64,000 bases of DNA from Oxynema aestuarii AP17. GTDB taxonomy: Bacteria > Cyanobacteriota > Cyanobacteriia > Cyanobacteriales > Laspinemataceae. Below the pieces are notes generated by a model that did no database searches, had not been told where the DNA came from, and saw nothing but the letters and a program-made list of their open reading frames with translations. Shown in pieces: positions 13,317 through 26,270 of the stretch (within the stretch, counting starts at the first letter, position 1; each line of letters opens with the position of its first letter). Position numbers and translations under genes: made by a program. The stretch covers positions 5,685,299-5,749,298 of the forward strand of contig NZ_CP051167.1 in assembly GCF_012295525.1 (NCBI RefSeq), given 5' to 3'.

Positions 13317-15539
13317 CTATCGATCCAAGCGTTCGAGCAGTTCCTTCGCCGCCGGATAAGCGGCGGTATCTTGGGGAACGAGCTGCGCGGCTTGAGTGGC
13401 GGTAGAGAAACGGCGACGACTGGCGCGATATTGGGCAATTTGCAAGATCGTATCGCTCCAGCGCTCGATTAAGGTGCGCGCTTGCTCGTATTGGGGCTGT
13501 CCCGGCGTAATTTGGCGAGCGAGGGCGATCGCGCGGTTGTAAGACGATGCCTGTCCCCGCCGGACGAGAGATTGGGCTTCTTGCAAGATTTCCCGATTTT
13601 TCTCGGCAATTTGCGCCTCTCGCTCCCATTCAGGCATCCTGGCTTGTACTTCTTTTTGTAATTGCGGGCGGTCTTTCGGGACTAATTTACCCGCCGCGAC
13701 GGCGCCTTCGTAGTTGCCTTGTTGGGCGCGACTGATGGCAATATCGAGAATAACCGCTCCCCAGCGATCGATATCTTTCTGCGCTTGGGCGTAACGCGGA
13801 TCGTCTTTTGGTATGTCGCGGGCTTCGGCGATCGCATAGCTGAATTGATGAGCCTGAGCGGGTTCTAGCGGTGCCAGCGCGCGATCGAGGTCTTCCGTTT
13901 CTCCAGGGCTACCCGTGGCTGTATTGTCTTGGTTTCCAGTCGGGGCTGGGGTTTGAGGGGTAGCAGCAGTGGTGCCATTGTTATTCCCCGTAGCAGCAGT
14001 GGCACCGTTATTATTCCCCGTAGCAGCAGTGGTGCCATTGTTATTCCCAGTAGCAGCAGTAGCGCCGTTATTCTCCCCAGTAGCAGCAGTGGCGCCGTTA
14101 TTGCCTTCGTTATTGTTCCCAGTAGCAGCAGTGGCGCCGTTATTCTCCCCAGTAGCAGCAGTGGCACCGTTATTGCCTTCGTTATTGTTCCCAGTAGCAG
14201 CAGTGGCGCCGTTATTGCCTTCGGTATTATTCCCAGTCGTGTTCGTTCCAGCCGTTGCAGGGGTTTCGCTATTGCCAGTCGTTCCCGTATTTCCAGCCGT
14301 TCCCGTCGTCGTCGTTCCGATCGCCCGAACGGGTTCGCCGTCACCTGTAACTTGCTCGGTTGGCGTTTCCTCCTGCCCCTCGGAATTGACCATTTTGACT
14401 AATTCCGGCCAAAACAGACCTAAAAGAATGACGAGAGCGACTAAACCGCCCCAAAATAGCCAACCTGCTATGCTGTTGCTGCGATTTTCCTCATCGTCGT
14501 CGCTGTCGAGGGGGGCGGGAGGAGGTTGGATGGTATTGCCAACGGGAGAATAACCCGTATTGTCGATATTCGGATCGGCCCAGCGCGATCGCCGTTCCCG
14601 TTCCGGGTCAAAATAAGGCAATTCAATACGGTTTGTATTGCTGGCGGTTTGGGTGGGGGTGGGGGCAGATGGCGCCAACTCCTCACGAGGCGGCAGGTCT
14701 GCATCGTCGTAACCCGAGTGTGACGCCGTCGTGGGGATCCCGGTTGCCATGGCGGCGAGTTCGCGATCGCCTGCATTCATAGCCCCCGCCATCACCAGTT
14801 GGCGCGGGAGGAACACCAATTGCAGTTTTTCCGGGGGATGGGCGATCGTCAAGGGGTCTTGACGGGGGCGACAGTGACGCTCGCATAATTGAGGGAGACG
14901 ATCGCACAAGAGGCGATCGAGACTTTCGAGGTTGTCCACGTCCCCGGATCGTAATGCTTCGAGCAAAGCGGCGGTAAAGAACCCGTGTTGTAGCGCCCCG
15001 GTTTCCCGAGAAAATTGTTCGTGCTGACAGGAGAGGATCGTGGGAATTTGCATTTCTCGGGCAAATTCCGCCGTCGATCGCCCGATTTCCTCCCCCGCAC
15101 TGGTTCCCATCGCCCGATTCATATCGAGGACGACGAGAATTTTATCGGTGGGACAGGCGTTAAAGGCATTGTAGAGCGATCGCATCGAAATGCCCGTCGC
15201 GCCGATATCGTCGGGGTTACCGTCAATAGGCATCAAGTAGTCTTCGCCGCGCCAAGTGACGCCGTAACCGCTAAAGAAGAACCACAAGACATCGTCGGAT
15301 TGGAGTTGGCGATCGCAAAATTCCTCGATCGCGTCGCCGAGGTTGGCTTGAATCGGATAAATCAAATTACTTTGCAGTTCGATGGAACTGTCGGTCACCA
15401 ATAAGGTGCGTTCCCCTGCAAAGCCCCGATTTTGGAGTAAAAATCGCGCCAGTTCTTCCGCGTCTTGCTTGGCGTATCCTAACGGCTGTAAATATTTATA
15501 TTCGTTAATCCCAATAAAGATACCTGCATGAGTTGTCAT
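13317..15539 (-). CDS. Orthocaspase-like (peptidase C14 fold) membrane protein, predicted catalytically inactive: caspase-like N-domain, TM helix, low-complexity GATAATGNNNG tandem repeats, and three C-terminal ~45-aa repeats
   Basis: N-terminus IFIGINEYK ... DDVLWFFFSGYG (Tyr where the catalytic His of SGHG would be) ... KILVVLDMNRAMG (no Cys at the DxCHSG position). TM segment IAGWLFWGGLVALVILLGLFW. Repeats are directly visible. Confidence 0.7.
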   Translation of the reverse strand: MTTHAGIFIGINEYKYLQPLGYAKQDAEELARFLLQNRGFAGERTLLVTDSSIELQSNLIYPIQANLGDAIEEFCDRQLQSDDVLWFFFSGYGVTWRGEDYLMPIDGNPDDIGATGISMRSLYNAFNACPTDKILVVLDMNRAMGTSAGEEIGRSTAEFAREMQIPTILSCQHEQFSRETGALQHGFFTAALLEALRSGDVDNLESLDRLLCDRLPQLCERHCRPRQDPLTIAHPPEKLQLVFLPRQLVMAGAMNAGDRELAAMATGIPTTASHSGYDDADLPPREELAPSAPTPTQTASNTNRIELPYFDPERERRSRWADPNIDNTGYSPVGNTIQPPPAPLDSDDDEENRSNSIAGWLFWGGLVALVILLGLFWPELVKMVNSEGQEETPTEQVTGDGEPVRAIGTTTTGTAGNTGTTGNSETPATAGTNTTGNNTEGNNGATAATGNNNEGNNGATAATGENNGATAATGNNNEGNNGATAATGENNGATAATGNNNGTTAATGNNNGATAATGNNNGTTAATPQTPAPTGNQDNTATGSPGETEDLDRALAPLEPAQAHQFSYAIAEARDIPKDDPRYAQAQKDIDRWGAVILDIAISRAQQGNYEGAVAAGKLVPKDRPQLQKEVQARMPEWEREAQIAEKNREILQEAQSLVRRGQASSYNRAIALARQITPGQPQYEQARTLIERWSDTILQIAQYRASRRRFSTATQAAQLVPQDTAAYPAAKELLERLDR
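13958..14240. repeat. Intragenic tandem repeat array, ~8 units of 33 bp (two 48-bp variants), consensus CCCCGTAGCAGCAGTGGCRCCGTTATTATT
   Basis: Seen in sequence. It encodes the GNNNGATAATG repeats of the orthocaspase-like protein and spawns spurious ORFs in all other frames. Confidence 0.85.
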
Positions 15540-16675: not shown

Positions 16676-17689
16676 TTGCACCCACAAACAGTACAGCCGA
16701 TGATTCAGACCTCGATCTCCCCCTTTCAAACCAAACTCGGAGCCCCCTTAACCAAGCGCCCCATCAAAGTATTGCAAATCAATTTAGGCAAACGTTGCAA
16801 TCTCGCTTGCACTCATTGCCACGTAGAAGCCGGACCGAAGCGCACCGAAGAAATGACCCCGGAGGTTTGCGAACAACTGATCGAAGTAATCCGCCGTTTC
16901 GAGGGGATTGAAACCGTCGATTTAACCGGGGGTGCGCCGGAAATGAATTATGGTTTCAAACCCTTAGTCGAAGCTGCGCGGGAAACGAATAAAGAAGTCA
17001 TCGTCCGTTCTAATTTAACCATTTATTTTGAGCCGGGATATCAAGACCTTCCCGAATATTTTGCTCGTCATCAGGTTCGCGTCGTCGCTTCGCTGCCGTG
17101 CTATTTAGAAGATAACGTCGATCGAATGCGCGGTTCGGGGGTATATGACGGTTCCATTCGGGCTTTGCAATGGCTGAATCAATTGGGGTACGGCAGCGAC
17201 CCGAATTTAATCCTCGATTTAGTTTACAATCCCCCGGTTCCTACCGATCGGGATAAGTTTAGTTTACCCCCACAACAACAATCCTTAGAAACCGCTTACA
17301 AAACCTATTTAAGGGAGAATTTTCAAATCGAGTTCGACCGTTTACTAACGATTACGAATTTACCGATCGGACGCACGAAATTCCACTTAGAAAAACACGG
17401 TCTCAAGCGCCCTTATTTAGAATTTCTCGAAGCCAATTTTAACCCCACCACTGTCGAGAATTTGATGTGTCGCGACGAACTCTCCATCGACTATCTCGGT
17501 AATGTTTACGATTGCGATTTCAATCAAATGGAAGGACTTCCAGCGCGCACAAAAAGCGGTGAAGCGCTCACGATCGCCAAACTGCTCGAATGGGGAACGC
17601 TAGAGGCGAGCGATCGCGTGCAAACGGCTCCCTATTGCTACGGCTGCACGGCGGGTTGCGGTTCGAGTTGTGGTGGGTCGCTGGTGTGA
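16676..17689 (+). CDS. arsS: Radical SAM protein resembling arsenosugar-biosynthesis ArsS (N-terminal CxxxCxxC and a Cys-rich C-terminal tail)
   Basis: CNLACTHC radical SAM triad. C-terminal CYGCTAGCGSSCGG motif. The ~340-aa size is characteristic of the ArsS family. An alternative start is ATG 16700 (MIQTSIS). Confidence 0.7.
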   Translation: MHPQTVQPMIQTSISPFQTKLGAPLTKRPIKVLQINLGKRCNLACTHCHVEAGPKRTEEMTPEVCEQLIEVIRRFEGIETVDLTGGAPEMNYGFKPLVEAARETNKEVIVRSNLTIYFEPGYQDLPEYFARHQVRVVASLPCYLEDNVDRMRGSGVYDGSIRALQWLNQLGYGSDPNLILDLVYNPPVPTDRDKFSLPPQQQSLETAYKTYLRENFQIEFDRLLTITNLPIGRTKFHLEKHGLKRPYLEFLEANFNPTTVENLMCRDELSIDYLGNVYDCDFNQMEGLPARTKSGEALTIAKLLEWGTLEASDRVQTAPYCYGCTAGCGSSCGGSLV

Positions 17690-17943
17690 GACCGCACCGC
17701 AATTAAAGCATCCGGTTTCTGACCGATTGAGGGGAAAGGATAGAAACCGGGTGGCTGGGTGCCTACGATCTACGCGGTCAATTAACCGATCGCCAAGGTT
17801 TAACAAACGCCTTAGTTCTGAGGAAAACCTTACCCGCGATCTGCAAAAACATTCTACATTACAATTTTTGTAAAACCGATAACACGGCTATGCAAGTTTG
17901 TTATATTATCCAAATTAATTTGGATTTAATGCGAGGCGATCGA

Positions 17944-19019
17944 ATGGCATCTCAACTGACGAAAACCAGTAAACCGCTCTTTTCTCAACATTTCCTCGAT
18001 CGCCGCATTCAAGAACTTCCAGAAGCGCAGAACGCCCAGATTACGCGCTGTTTGCTTCTGAAAATCTCAAAAACGAAGCATTTTTGGTTCGAGAAGACGA
18101 AACGGCTTTTTACCATAAAGTGACGGCGATCGCAGAAGCAAAGTATTGGGAACGTGCGCTGAGTAAGGTTTCTAAAAACGACAAGCGCGATCGCTTCAAA
18201 AACGACAACCCATCGTTTCAGATTGTTAATTATCTAACGGGGACGGGCGTTGACTGGGGAGTCTTGACCAACGGACGGGAATGGCGACTGTATTACCGTC
18301 AAGGATCCTCAAAAGCGAAAGAATCCTATCAAATCGATTTGGTGGAAATTCTCGAATCAGAAAAAGACGAACCGGAGCAATTAGAAAAATTTAAATATTT
18401 TTGGCTGTTTTTCCGGCGCGACGCCTTTGTGAAAGACGCCTATGGAAAAACCTTTCTCGATCGCGTGCGGGAAGAAAGTACCACCTACGCCACGGAAGTG
18501 GAAGCCGAATTGAAAAAACTCGTCTTCGAGCGCGTGTTTCCCGATTTAGCGGGGGGATTCGTGGCGGCGGCGTATCGTCGGGGAGAGACGCCGGGACCTC
18601 GCGCAGTTTACGAGGCGACGCTATCGTTTCTGTATAAAATCTTGTTTTTGCTGTACGCGGAAGGGAAAAACCTGCTTCCGAGTCAGTTGGAGGCGTATCG
18701 CGAGTATAGTTTAATCGGGATGACGCAGGAAATCGCGACTCGCATCGATCGCGCCGCCACCTTCAGTCAGGCGGCGACGGGATGGTACGATAAACTCCTG
18801 AGTCTGTTTCACATTGTCGATCGCGGGGATGCAGTGTTACAGGTTCCCCGGTACAACGGCGGCTTGTTTCATCTGGCGTCGGCGACAAATGGCGGAACGG
18901 AGTCGAACGAAAACGAGTTTCTGCAACAGACGCTGCAACCGATTTTGAAAACGCGGGTGGCGCAGTTTGAGGCGAAGATGGCGGAAATTGAGGCGGTTCG
19001 ATCGCAAATTGCCAAATAG
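17944..19019 (+). pseudogene. Frameshifted and 3'-truncated remnant of a type IIG restriction-modification / BREX PglX-like enzyme (N-terminal region only)
   Basis: Two overlapping ORFs in different frames, 17890-18123 and 18084-19019, together encode an N-terminal region with ...LFSQHFLDRRIQEL... and the conserved ...PRYNGGLFHL motif seen in MmeI-like enzymes. The methyltransferase and target-recognition domains are absent. The ORF ends 44 bp from the tRNA. Confidence 0.5.
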
Positions 19020-19063: not shown

Positions 19064-19136
19064 TGGAGAATAGGAGATTCGAACTCCTGACCTCTGCGGT
19101 GCGATCGCAGCGCTCTACCAACTGAGCTAATTCCCC
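19064..19136 (-). tRNA. tRNA-Ala (anticodon CGC)
   Basis: A 73-nt cloverleaf folded by hand: acceptor GGGGAAT/ATTCTCC with the G3:U70 Ala identity pair, D-arm GCTCAGTTGGTAGAGC, anticodon loop AUCGCAC, T-arm GGAGTTCGAATCTCC. CCA is not encoded. Confidence 0.85.
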
Positions 19137-23734: not shown

Positions 23735-24742
23735 TTATCGACTTAACTTTTTTCGCAACTTATCGACTATCCCCCGTCCCCAGAGTTTCATCATTCGCCA
23801 TCGGGTCAATTCGGGAATGGTGGAACTCCACTGGTGACGACTATCAAAAAACTCGTTAATTTCTTCCAAAATTACTCGCAAGCGATTAAGAATATTATCC
23901 GTGCGGTATTCGGCGAGTAAAGATTCATCGAATAAGTTGGGATCGGGCTTTTCCAACACCCTTAAAATTCTTTGAATGTCGTAATCTGGAGAATATCCGG
24001 CAATTTTATAACTGTTAAATCCCGGATCGAGATAATCCGAAAGCCCACCATTAATGCTGGAGAAAACATAACAGCCACAGGCGATCGCCTCCAAGGGTTG
24101 CAATCCAAATCCCTCGCTGACCCCTTGTAATGCCCAATATTGAGCGGAATCGTAAAGATAAATTTTAGCGCGATTGAACAATCCCGGCAAATCTTCAATG
24201 TAGGAATTCACCACAAAAACATGACATTGTTTTTGCAAAGCTGGAACTAATCGATCGAGCAAATAATCGGAAGATTTACGCGCCTGTACTAAGACATCGA
24301 TATCGCGATCGCAGTTAAAATTTTTAAATTCATCGCCGATTTGATTGGGTAAATAATAAATTAAATTATGGGGTGCTTTTTGTCCCCAATATCCCATGGT
24401 ATTGCGGCTAACTGTAATAATAGGAATATGAGCGGGAATGTGGAAGCCATACCCGGCACTATGAGCGTGATAAATGACGGGATATCCTCGGAGGCGATCG
24501 GCCAGTTTGGCAACATCGAAGCCCCAACTCATGACAAAAATAATCTTATTTTTGATATCGGTTAAACTCGGATCTTTTAAAAGATCGTCCAAAAAAATAC
24601 GGTCTTTTTCTCGCTGTCGATAAGTAACAATTTCCGCCGGACAAATATGTTTGGCGAGATTAAAGGTTTTTAATTCTGCCCACAACCCACCGCAGGCAAA
24701 TTGACCAGTAGTTCCGGGTACTAAAAAATAGAGTTTTCTCAC
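23735..24742 (-). CDS. Glycosyltransferase family 1 (GT-B fold)
   Basis: C-terminal GT1 motif EGFGLQPLEAIACGCYVFSS. AT-rich coding sequence. GTG start. Confidence 0.7.
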   Translation of the reverse strand: MRKLYFLVPGTTGQFACGGLWAELKTFNLAKHICPAEIVTYRQREKDRIFLDDLLKDPSLTDIKNKIIFVMSWGFDVAKLADRLRGYPVIYHAHSAGYGFHIPAHIPIITVSRNTMGYWGQKAPHNLIYYLPNQIGDEFKNFNCDRDIDVLVQARKSSDYLLDRLVPALQKQCHVFVVNSYIEDLPGLFNRAKIYLYDSAQYWALQGVSEGFGLQPLEAIACGCYVFSSINGGLSDYLDPGFNSYKIAGYSPDYDIQRILRVLEKPDPNLFDESLLAEYRTDNILNRLRVILEEINEFFDSRHQWSSTIPELTRWRMMKLWGRGIVDKLRKKLSR

Positions 24743-24920
24743 AGTTTTTTACAGACTTTTTTGGGGTTAGTCCAACTAAAGTAGTTTACATTTAATTGAA
24801 TATAGCAATTCTCAGTTTGGCGAAATTCATCGCTATTTTAGTGGATTTCCGTTCCCATGGGAATGACAAATTAAGTAGATTTACTTATGATAAAAAAGGA
24901 TATAGAACCAGTTGCAATAA

Positions 24921-26270
24921 CTATATTCGCTTTGCGAAAATTACATAATCGTCAAGGGTATAGTGTGAATTATAAGCAAGGTTTAAATATTTAGTTTTTA
25001 GGGGATTAAGATAAGTTTGCAGGGGGAGATGATTGGATGCAAAATTGTAAAAATTTTTTATTTTAGTTCGGCTACCTGTTGACGTTAAATATTTATACCA
25101 TTCAAGACGAAGACCTAAATTTTCTAGAAATTCAACGATAAGTGTTTGTTCTTTTTTTATATCTTTATTTTGATTTACAATGAAATTTTGAGATTTAAAT
25201 AATTTACTTTTTTGAATAACCAACACGACTTTACCATTACTTTTTAAGCAATTTTCAATTATTTTACTATAAGCTTTATAGGATCTTTCTCTAGATTGAA
25301 GATCGCTGAAAAAACAATGGGAAATAAAAACAAAGTCAAAAAAGTCTCGTGGGAGTTTTTCTAAAAAATTTTCGTAATCGAAAATATTGGCAGTATCGAA
25401 GCGGAAATAAGTATTGGGAGGTTGAGGATGAGATTCGAGATAACGCCGCCAAAACTGGAAACCCCGATATTGTAAGTTAGCTTGAGCTTCTAAAGAATAA
25501 TAAGAAATATGAAATAGTGGATTTTGCAAAAATTGATGACTGCTTTGTAAGAATAACGCCAACCCATAAGCTACTGTACCCGGTCCGGCAGCCAGATCGA
25601 GAACATTAAAATTAGTGGGTAACAGTCCAGCTTGATAAATCAAAAACCATACTAAATAGTTACAGTAAACATTTTCTGCAAAATATTTCAGCAAATAGAC
25701 ATCAGGAGTGAAATTAAATGCGTATTCGGGATCGATTCCCTTTTTAAGCTTTTCCAGATCTTCGATCGCTTTTTGAATCTCTTCACGTTTCTTGGGAGTC
25801 GAATTTTTCTTAAATGCTTCGGTTAAAAACAAAGACAACTCATGTTCAAATCGATCGAAAACTGTTCGATCGATTCCCGTTACTTGCAATTTTGCGCGAT
25901 CGTGTTCGACCACATGAAAACTATTGGTAATAAAATCAATTAAATTAGAGTCTGGGGTTAAAAGTCCACGAGCATCCGTATTGTCAAAAAGCTGTTCGAG
26001 TTCTAAAAAATTAACCTTTTGACGAAATTCGATAACTTCTTGTTTAAGTTTTTTAATTTCTTGTTTGGCATCTTCTAACTCGGTTTCAGCTTGTTTCTTT
26101 TTGTTAAGTAATTTGGCAATTCCCGATATCGGACTCTTCTGGATCTTGAGCTTGGCTAATCGTCGTTCGGCAAGATCGAAGTTGTTATTATTGAGTGCGG
26201 TAATCACATACAGGGAATTCCACCAGTTTTTAATCAGTTCAATCATAGCCAAATCCAGAGGCGCCCTCAA
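24921..26270 (-). CDS. Hypothetical protein: N-terminal Lys/Glu-rich coiled coil plus C-terminal class I SAM-methyltransferase-like fold
   Basis: Motif I-like NVLDLAAGPGTVAYGLALFL followed by the hydrophobic and acidic blocks expected of a Rossmann-type MTase. Heptad-like KQEIKKLKQEVIEFRQK. ~35% GC. Confidence 0.5.
   Translation of the reverse strand: MRAPLDLAMIELIKNWWNSLYVITALNNNNFDLAERRLAKLKIQKSPISGIAKLLNKKKQAETELEDAKQEIKKLKQEVIEFRQKVNFLELEQLFDNTDARGLLTPDSNLIDFITNSFHVVEHDRAKLQVTGIDRTVFDRFEHELSLFLTEAFKKNSTPKKREEIQKAIEDLEKLKKGIDPEYAFNFTPDVYLLKYFAENVYCNYLVWFLIYQAGLLPTNFNVLDLAAGPGTVAYGLALFLQSSHQFLQNPLFHISYYSLEAQANLQYRGFQFWRRYLESHPQPPNTYFRFDTANIFDYENFLEKLPRDFFDFVFISHCFFSDLQSRERSYKAYSKIIENCLKSNGKVVLVIQKSKLFKSQNFIVNQNKDIKKEQTLIVEFLENLGLRLEWYKYLTSTGSRTKIKNFYNFASNHLPLQTYLNPLKTKYLNLAYNSHYTLDDYVIFAKRI

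Follow-up and report, generated by a model that had tools for sequence, protein, structure and literature searches.

A YN-type pseudo-orthocaspase of Oxynema aestuarii AP17 with a predicted membrane anchor and a probably extracytoplasmic helical-repeat module

A 64,000 nucleotide stretch of the Oxynema aestuarii AP17 genome (NZ_CP051167.1, positions 5,685,299 to 5,749,298), referred to here as the window, contains a caspase-like gene at 13317..15539 on the minus strand. The gene is a complete open reading frame (ORF) of 740 amino acids (aa) followed by a stop codon (13317-13319), as supported by the ORF listing, its homologs and the ratio of nonsynonymous to synonymous substitution rates (dN/dS). 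The protein starts MTTHAGIFIGINEYKY. Judged by its sequence, the gene product is a member of the published YN clade of pseudo-orthocaspases, with Tyr in the column of the catalytic His and Asn in the column of the catalytic Cys. At a probability of roughly 0.55 it is read as a bitopic, non-catalytic pseudo-enzyme in which a cytosolic dead caspase domain and an outer helical array together would form a trans-membrane scaffold or receptor. The new elements are the unnamed C-terminal module, which is defined here, a second architecture in which it occurs, and its probable placement outside the cytoplasm. The YN variant and pseudo-orthocaspases bearing a transmembrane (TM) helix are already in the literature and the dead p20 domain adds little new, so the unusualness implied in a first-pass annotation of this DNA was overrated. 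All features of the gene given below are on the minus strand.

The N-terminal part of the protein matched the Pfam family Peptidase_C14 (PF00656) at residues 7-208 with an E-value of 1.2e-14 and a score of 55.1 bits against a gathering cutoff of 21.4. An AlphaFold2 (AF2) model of residues 1-250, built with 49 homologs, had a predicted local distance difference test score (pLDDT) of 89.1 and a predicted template modeling score (pTM) of 0.90. Foldseek matched the p20 model to the bacterial caspase homolog GSU0716, the MALT1 paracaspase, AtMC9, AtMC4 and Yca1 with a probability of 1.0, TMq values of 0.6-0.71 and E-values of about 1e-10 to 1e-11. On the strength of the confident model and the Foldseek matches, the N-terminal 245 residues (14805..15539) are modeled as a complete caspase-like domain, which is predicted to be cytosolic. 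The ORF begins directly at the first strand (residues 4-10), and neither a signal peptide nor a prodomain precedes it. Besides Peptidase_C14, the protein gave no Pfam or NCBIfam match above cutoff, so there is no p10 or other recognised domain after the p20. Two other identities were considered and rejected. A type I metacaspase would carry an N-terminal prodomain and, set off by the long linker, a separate p10 domain. This protein is without a prodomain, and its sequence alignments to metacaspases end after the His region. The best NCBIfam match, EACC1-associated caspase (NF047832), scored 54.4 bits against a cutoff of 140.

The FFFSGYG motif occupies residues 87-93 and ILVVLDMNRAMG residues 134-145. 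In sequence and profile alignments FSGYG was placed over the YSGHG of four solved metacaspases, namely Yca1, Candida glabrata CgMCA1, TbMC2 and AtMC4. Tyr92 (codon TAC, 15264..15266) is thereby at the catalytic His position. Asp26 (15462..15464) aligned with the pocket Asp of the CIND/CCND motif in Yca1 and TbMC2, which is Asp95 in TbMC2. The Cys region did not align with the solved metacaspases. Hidden Markov model (HMM) searches against PDB sequences did not go beyond the His region, nor did hhalign against a Yca1 sequence of which the second half was approximate. The Cys column was settled with a p20 alignment of cyanobacterial sequences in the supplement to Klemencic et al. 2019 (PMC6426788). 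Family rows reading VLVLDINR and IVMLDMNR share columns there with the VVILDCCH of true orthocaspases. As LDxNR stands in the LDCCH columns, the family Asn, which is Asn141 here (codon AAT, 15117..15119), falls on the catalytic Cys. In the same alignment Asp139 (15123..15125), the Asp of D-x-N141, lines up with the Asp that precedes the catalytic Cys of true orthocaspases by two positions. N141 is located at the C-terminal end of the strand 133-142 in the AF2 model. With Tyr92 in the His column and Asn141 in the Cys column, the protein lacks the His-Cys dyad of an active C14 peptidase.

The dyad positions were counted in the query and 120 retrieved homologs (121 sequences). The combination YN was found in 68 sequences, HN in 42 and YS in six, and none had Cys. 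Counted by position, the His column held Y in 78 and H in 42 sequences, and the Cys column held N in 111, S in six and C in none. The HN group (P0022 and 41 other homologs) includes the orthologs of Planktothrix agardhii and reads FFFSGHG, so that His has been kept or regained with Asn in the Cys column. In 49 diverse members, none of the p20 columns that were invariant or at least 90% conserved held Cys or His. The invariant p20 residues in these 49 sequences included D26, S90, G91, S170, D139 and E179, and D26 and D139 were also invariant in an 18-sequence alignment. In metacaspases the equivalents of the two Asp residues (D95 and D211 of TbMC2) form the Arg/Lys-binding S1 pocket (PMC6426788). 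As no conserved Cys or His is left in the p20 domain, the conservation pattern excludes a thiol-protease mechanism for the whole family, and the acidic S1 pocket, with Asp26 and Asp139 as its first and second acidic residues, is retained. The first-pass annotation had described a caspase/C14 p20 topology with Tyr at the His position, no Cys at the nucleophile position and no classical protease mechanism, and had named a C14 HMM search with alignment of the catalytic positions as a check. The search gave a significant match, the alignment placed neither His nor Cys at the catalytic positions of this protein, and the description stands in all of these respects.

An initial search returned 231 significant relatives, and all of the named ones were cyanobacterial "caspase family" proteins. 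The protein was 99% identical to a JGI metagenome protein, and its closest named relative was a caspase family protein of Oxynema sp. CENA135 (89% identity). The closest named relatives came from Oxynema, Phormidium, Planktothrix, Lyngbya, Microcoleus and members of the Nostocales. The genomes of at least 531 GTDB species encode a relative. In the top 80 loci the hosts that have a name were, with few exceptions, filamentous (Microcoleus, Tychonema, Lyngbya, Planktothrix, Kamptonema, Symploca and Scytonematopsis).

A distinct YN pseudo-orthocaspase clade was described by Klemencic et al. 2019 from multicellular cyanobacteria, with the pocket Asp conserved, "no identifiable domain" after the p20 and Nostoc sp. 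T09 A0A252EC77 as the archetype (PMC6426788). According to Bhattacharjee et al. 2021 (PMC8283722), about 31% of pseudo-orthocaspases are of the YN type, and TM helices occur in 37 pseudo-orthocaspases. The assignment of the Oxynema protein to the YN clade was based on motifs shared with the archetype and on the YN alignment rows of Klemencic et al. 2019. The p20 motifs GINQY...QPL..AQ.DA, WFFFSGYG, DYL.P..G.P and LD.NR are the same as in the archetype family. The protein also shares with the clade Tyr in the His column, Asn in the Cys column, the pocket Asp residues (D26 and D139) and a filamentous cyanobacterial host, and its p20 showed no differences from the clade. This placement agrees with the earlier statement that orthocaspases without the dyad are known, widespread in cyanobacteria and of unknown function. 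In the present protein the region after the p20, which the clade description left without a domain, comprises a TM helix, then a spacer of variable length, then a conserved module of helical repeats of about 95 aa. The clade description also refers to nitrogen-fixing multicellular strains, whereas Planktothrix agardhii carries the HN version. This species is not known to have nif genes or to fix nitrogen. If it indeed does neither, the association of the clade with nitrogen-fixing strains in the literature looks too narrow.

The caspase-like domain is followed by a P/A/D-rich linker (residues 246-356, 14472..14804) which could not be aligned between homologs and which is predicted from its composition to be cytosolic and disordered. 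A single TM helix was predicted at residues 357-378 (14406..14471), with the sequence IAGWLFWGGLVALVILLGLFWP. This was the only hydrophobic segment in a Kyte-Doolittle scan, with a KD19 maximum of 2.27 compared to 1.6 or less in all other windows. An equivalent segment was found in 121 of 121 family sequences. A GxxxG-type dimerisation motif was present in only 28 of 65 non-redundant TM segments and is not conserved. Residues 379-555 (13875..14405) form a low-complexity spacer composed of T (22%), N (18%), G (17%) and A (16%). Part of it is encoded by near-perfect DNA tandem repeats at 13960-14237, which give rise to a GATAATGNNN tract. Tandem Repeats Finder reported periods of 30, 42, 60 and 72 nt in the spacer, and the 72-nt unit was present in 2.4 copies with 98% matches. 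The repeat copy number differs in close relatives, with proteins of 740, 710 and 701 aa, and the length of the spacer therefore varies between strains.

The C-terminal 185 residues consist of two units of about 95 aa, whose Smith-Waterman local alignment gave z=16 relative to shuffled sequences. Within each unit there are two weakly related halves of about 45 aa (z=3-6), and some homologs have three units. Self-alignment and AF2 place unit 1 at residues 561-658 (13566..13859) and unit 2 at residues 659-740 (13320..13565), each with four helices. The AF2 model of the module had a pLDDT of 95.3 and eight helices, among them residues 7-20, 29-52, 56-64 and 71-104 in fragment numbering. With high confidence in the model, the module is predicted to fold as a tetratricopeptide repeat (TPR)-like helical array. 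The first-pass annotation had reported a single TM helix, a low-complexity tract and three repeats of about 45 aa, and had suggested an AlphaFold model. The TM helix and the tract were borne out, the models of both folded domains were confident, and the three repeats have to be replaced by two units of double that length.

No Pfam or NCBIfam family covered the module. In this protein the sole match was ARM_TT21, which scored 14.7-15.7 bits where 27 are required, and this model reached 28-41 bits in a few homologs. TPR_x models gave weak matches only, in 2-6 of 24 members. A module profile run exhaustively with HMMER returned 1,319 cluster representatives, of which 388 had E-values of 1e-30 or lower. 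With cluster members added, 165 module-containing sequences were retrieved, and the p20 domain was present in 102 of them. The module was positioned after a TM helix in every architecture found, these being p20 and module, TM helix with 4-6 units, and a short form of TM helix and module. No second copy of the module was found in the 64-kb window.

The p20-less architecture consists of a short Arg-rich N-terminal tail, one TM helix and 4-6 units. These proteins are annotated as "hypothetical" or "chromosome segregation ATPase", the latter name having no domain support. An example from Oxynema sp. CENA135 is WP_200664187 (757 aa). It shares with the caspase-like protein the same unit of about 95 aa after a single TM helix, and p20-less proteins differ from it in having no caspase domain, an Arg-rich N-tail, a Cys pair after the TM helix, 4-6 units and synteny with hslO. 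In Oxynema sp. CENA135, Kamptonema formosum and Chroococcidiopsis sp. CCALA 051 the gene of the p20-less paralog is the immediate downstream neighbor of hslO (Pfam HSP33) and has the same orientation (L006 4496-8274, L007 3802-8241 and L008 4892-8142, all outside the window). The arrangement has the look of a conserved syntenic pair, made up of a redox chaperone gene and the gene of an uncharacterised envelope protein. In one family member, P0120 from a metagenome-assembled genome (MAG) of Coleofasciculus sp. S288, a Rieske 2Fe-2S domain (CTHAGC...CPCH; PF00355) in the C-terminal 70 or so residues comes after three repeat units. This could be a real fusion hinting at a p-side location, or an artefact of assembly or gene calling.

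The topology of the protein was assessed mainly from the absence of a signal peptide and from the p20-less paralogs. In 108 p20-less paralogs the count of Lys plus Arg residues (K+R) was 3.6 in the 20 residues before the TM helix and 1.2 after it, and the N-tail carried about seven more K+R than Asp plus Glu. A Cys pair was found within 60 residues after the TM helix in 104 of the 108, usually as the sole Cys of the protein. The charge bias and the Cys pair indicate that the repeats are outside the cytoplasm in these paralogs. Export by the Sec or twin-arginine translocation (Tat) routes would not be expected for an N-terminal region of 356 residues that has no signal peptide. Because there is no signal peptide, a single internal TM helix and the charge bias of the paralogs, the protein is most likely inserted N-in/C-out, which would place the dead caspase domain in the cytoplasm and the spacer and helical module in the periplasm or thylakoid lumen. 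The same points, with the constant position of the module after the TM helix, favor the ectodomain that had been put forward in the first-pass annotation.

Selection on the gene was measured against the Oxynema sp. CENA135 ortholog. The dN/dS was 0.20 overall, 0.10 in the p20 domain, 0.14 in the C-terminal module and 0.46 in the linker before the TM helix. These values indicate purifying selection on both the p20 domain and the module, each of which is presumably functional. Selection on the linker (residues 246-356) is relaxed, as would suit a tether.

In the proposed mechanism the partner bound by the outer TPR-like array would be a protein or would belong to the envelope or periplasm. A basic, Arg/Lys-containing peptide segment of a partner would be bound by the pseudo-active site in the cytosol, and the two binding sides together would make the protein a trans-membrane scaffold or receptor. 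The receptor or scaffold suggested in the first-pass annotation is compatible with the data. A candidate role, by analogy with cFLIP and caspase-8, is that of a decoy or regulator of the true Arg/Lys-specific orthocaspases in filamentous cyanobacteria. A more far-reaching proposal is that the unit of about 95 aa represents an undefined, cyanobacteria-specific extracytoplasmic domain family, found in YN proteins and Hsp33-linked membrane proteins, which relays an envelope cue to the dead caspase. The latter would sequester or present Arg/Lys substrates and so gate active orthocaspases. This proposal is speculative and is considered improbable as it stands.

Several points weigh against the scaffold or receptor reading. 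The positive-inside signal of the p20 family itself is weak, with a net charge of +0.37 before the TM helix and -0.63 after it (20 residues), and with 1.7 K+R before and 2.3 after within 15 residues. Nothing in the data separates the periplasm from the thylakoid lumen. The fold matches of the module were generic and gave no specific structural homolog. No neighboring gene was conserved across lineages in 21 diverse loci, so there is no operon partner pointing to a ligand or pathway. Metacaspases are usually monomers, and the decoy or regulator idea is an analogy. Experimental work on YN-type proteins was not found in the literature.

Other explanations were weighed against these data. The protein could have an inverted topology or be peripheral, with the C-terminal repeats in the cytosol and the hydrophobic segment a mere anchor. 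The slightly higher K+R after the TM helix in the p20 family would suit this arrangement, but it would imply export of the folded N-terminal region without a signal peptide, which is implausible. Net charge over 20 residues favors N-in, the module of the paralogs is clearly on the trans side by its K+R bias and conserved Cys pair, and inversion is thought very improbable. If the N-in/C-out topology is accepted, the membrane in question might be the thylakoid, with the helical module facing the lumen and a role in thylakoid or photosystem biogenesis as proposed for the YS type. PetC has its Rieske domain on the lumenal side in cyanobacteria, and P0120 has a C-terminal Rieske domain (CTHxGC...CPCH) directly after the repeats, but this fusion is a single MAG protein. 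Klemencic et al. 2019 proposed the thylakoid or photosynthesis role for the YS clade from a Tat-like signal and light regulation (PMC6426788), but the YN clade is without a Tat-like N-terminus. The long spacer of variable length suits the periplasm as well as the lumen. A thylakoid protein is unlikely on this balance, although it is the most plausible of the alternatives.

A role as sensor or effector of an anti-phage or conflict system is judged very unlikely. Fusions of caspase-like domains to helical repeats occur in many of these systems. The generic "caspase" model of PADLOC matched the protein with an E-value of 1.4e-12, but this match spans only the shared caspase domain, and no conserved partner gene was found in the 21 loci. 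The best NCBIfam match was the EACC1-associated caspase, though with a score far under the cutoff. A NACHT-family gene was found upstream in two loci, in Symploca and Caldora. The absence of the catalytic dyad also speaks against a defence effector, and the occurrence in so many species-level genomes under purifying selection is more housekeeping-like than expected of a mobile defence island. Least probable of all is a hydrolase with a non-canonical nucleophile, either a conserved Ser or the His of the HN variant. S90 and S170 are invariant, the pocket is strongly conserved, the HN group with Planktothrix has His at the His position and a small YS subclade of six sequences has Ser at the Cys position. 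However, the Asn in the nucleophile position of 111 of 121 sequences is unable to act as a nucleophile, and S90 is the structural Ser of the S-G-H-G turn, which is present in active enzymes too. No C14 enzyme is known to work without a Cys nucleophile.

The scaffold or receptor reading was compared to known systems. The YS-type SyOC of Synechocystis sp. PCC 6803 is likewise a cyanobacterial protein with a dead p20, Tyr at the His position and an acidic pocket (PMC7889975, PMC6426788). The comparison with Tyr/Ser-type orthocaspases suggested in the first-pass annotation showed that YS proteins differ in that Ser occupies their Cys column and that their N-terminus has a Tat-like extension, and that they form a separate clade from YN which also occurs in unicellular strains. 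SyOC is the subject of the sole functional study found, in which the knockout tolerated H2O2 better (PMC7889975). This phenotype is not transferable to the YN clade. A 2020 review proposed a cytosolic p20, a TM helix and an outside repeat domain for some true orthocaspases, for example Ava_0039 and Ava_3079 (PMC7475262). These resemble the present protein in the cytosolic p20, the one TM helix, the outer repeat domain and the proposed logic of an outside domain modulating an inside p20. They are unlike it in that the His-Cys dyad is kept, that they are presumed proteases and that the outer repeats are WD40 beta-propellers and not helical repeats. Trypanosoma brucei MCA4 (cited in PMC8283722) is similar in having a caspase fold which has lost its nucleophile and in acting as a non-catalytic regulator or scaffold. 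Unlike the Oxynema protein, MCA4 and cFLIP have no TM helix and no helical-repeat ectodomain. The eukaryotic pseudo-caspase cFLIP is itself a non-catalytic regulator or scaffold.

The gene appears to be monocistronic. It is convergent with a gene for a PAS-GAF histidine kinase, a pairing common only to the close Oxynema relative. In the region of about 1.1 kb upstream of the gene no convincing gene and no Rfam RNA family were found, and promoter and terminator scans were not above shuffled expectation. Divergent and further upstream is a 337-aa ORF (16676-17689, plus strand) with a CNLACTHC motif (CxxxCxxC, radical-SAM-like), in place of which Oxynema sp. CENA135 carries an SLH/Poly_export gene. 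In a subset of Phormidium, Microcoleus and Kamptonema genomes a divergent cluster was located upstream of the ortholog, comprising two V4R-domain proteins, a phycobilisome-protein-like gene and a small ORF (L009 1149-3461, with equivalents in L021, L041, L045, L050, L066, L069 and L087). This cluster is absent from the window. A conserved protein of about 207-226 aa without a Pfam match was encoded divergently beside the ortholog in L003 (5076-5747), L005 (5268-5891) and L056 (3045-3728, Scytonematopsis), with rpmF (L32) next in L003 and L005.

Elsewhere in the window, ORFs of 77 aa (17890-18123) and 311 aa (18084-19019) on the plus strand (17890-19019) overlap slightly in different frames and look like a disrupted larger gene. 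A tRNA-Ala gene with the anticodon CGC (19064-19136, minus strand) was the only RNA gene detected in the window. The region 24001-26000 has a G+C content of 0.36 compared to about 0.5 in the remainder of the window and could be intergenic or of foreign origin.

Few caspase homologs of cyanobacteria are as conserved as the pseudo-orthocaspases. A region once described as having "no identifiable domain" is now modeled as a confidently folded helical-repeat module, under purifying selection, which always follows a TM helix and is also found in p20-less membrane proteins encoded beside hslO. The module merits definition as a Pfam/InterPro domain family. These results give handles for work in a tractable filamentous strain on topology, localisation and partners on each side of the membrane. 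If the protein regulates active orthocaspases, it bears on the control of regulated cell death in multicellular bacteria. Gating of the dead caspase by the module would, if true, be a prokaryotic counterpart of cFLIP-type cell-death control in a multicellular bacterium.

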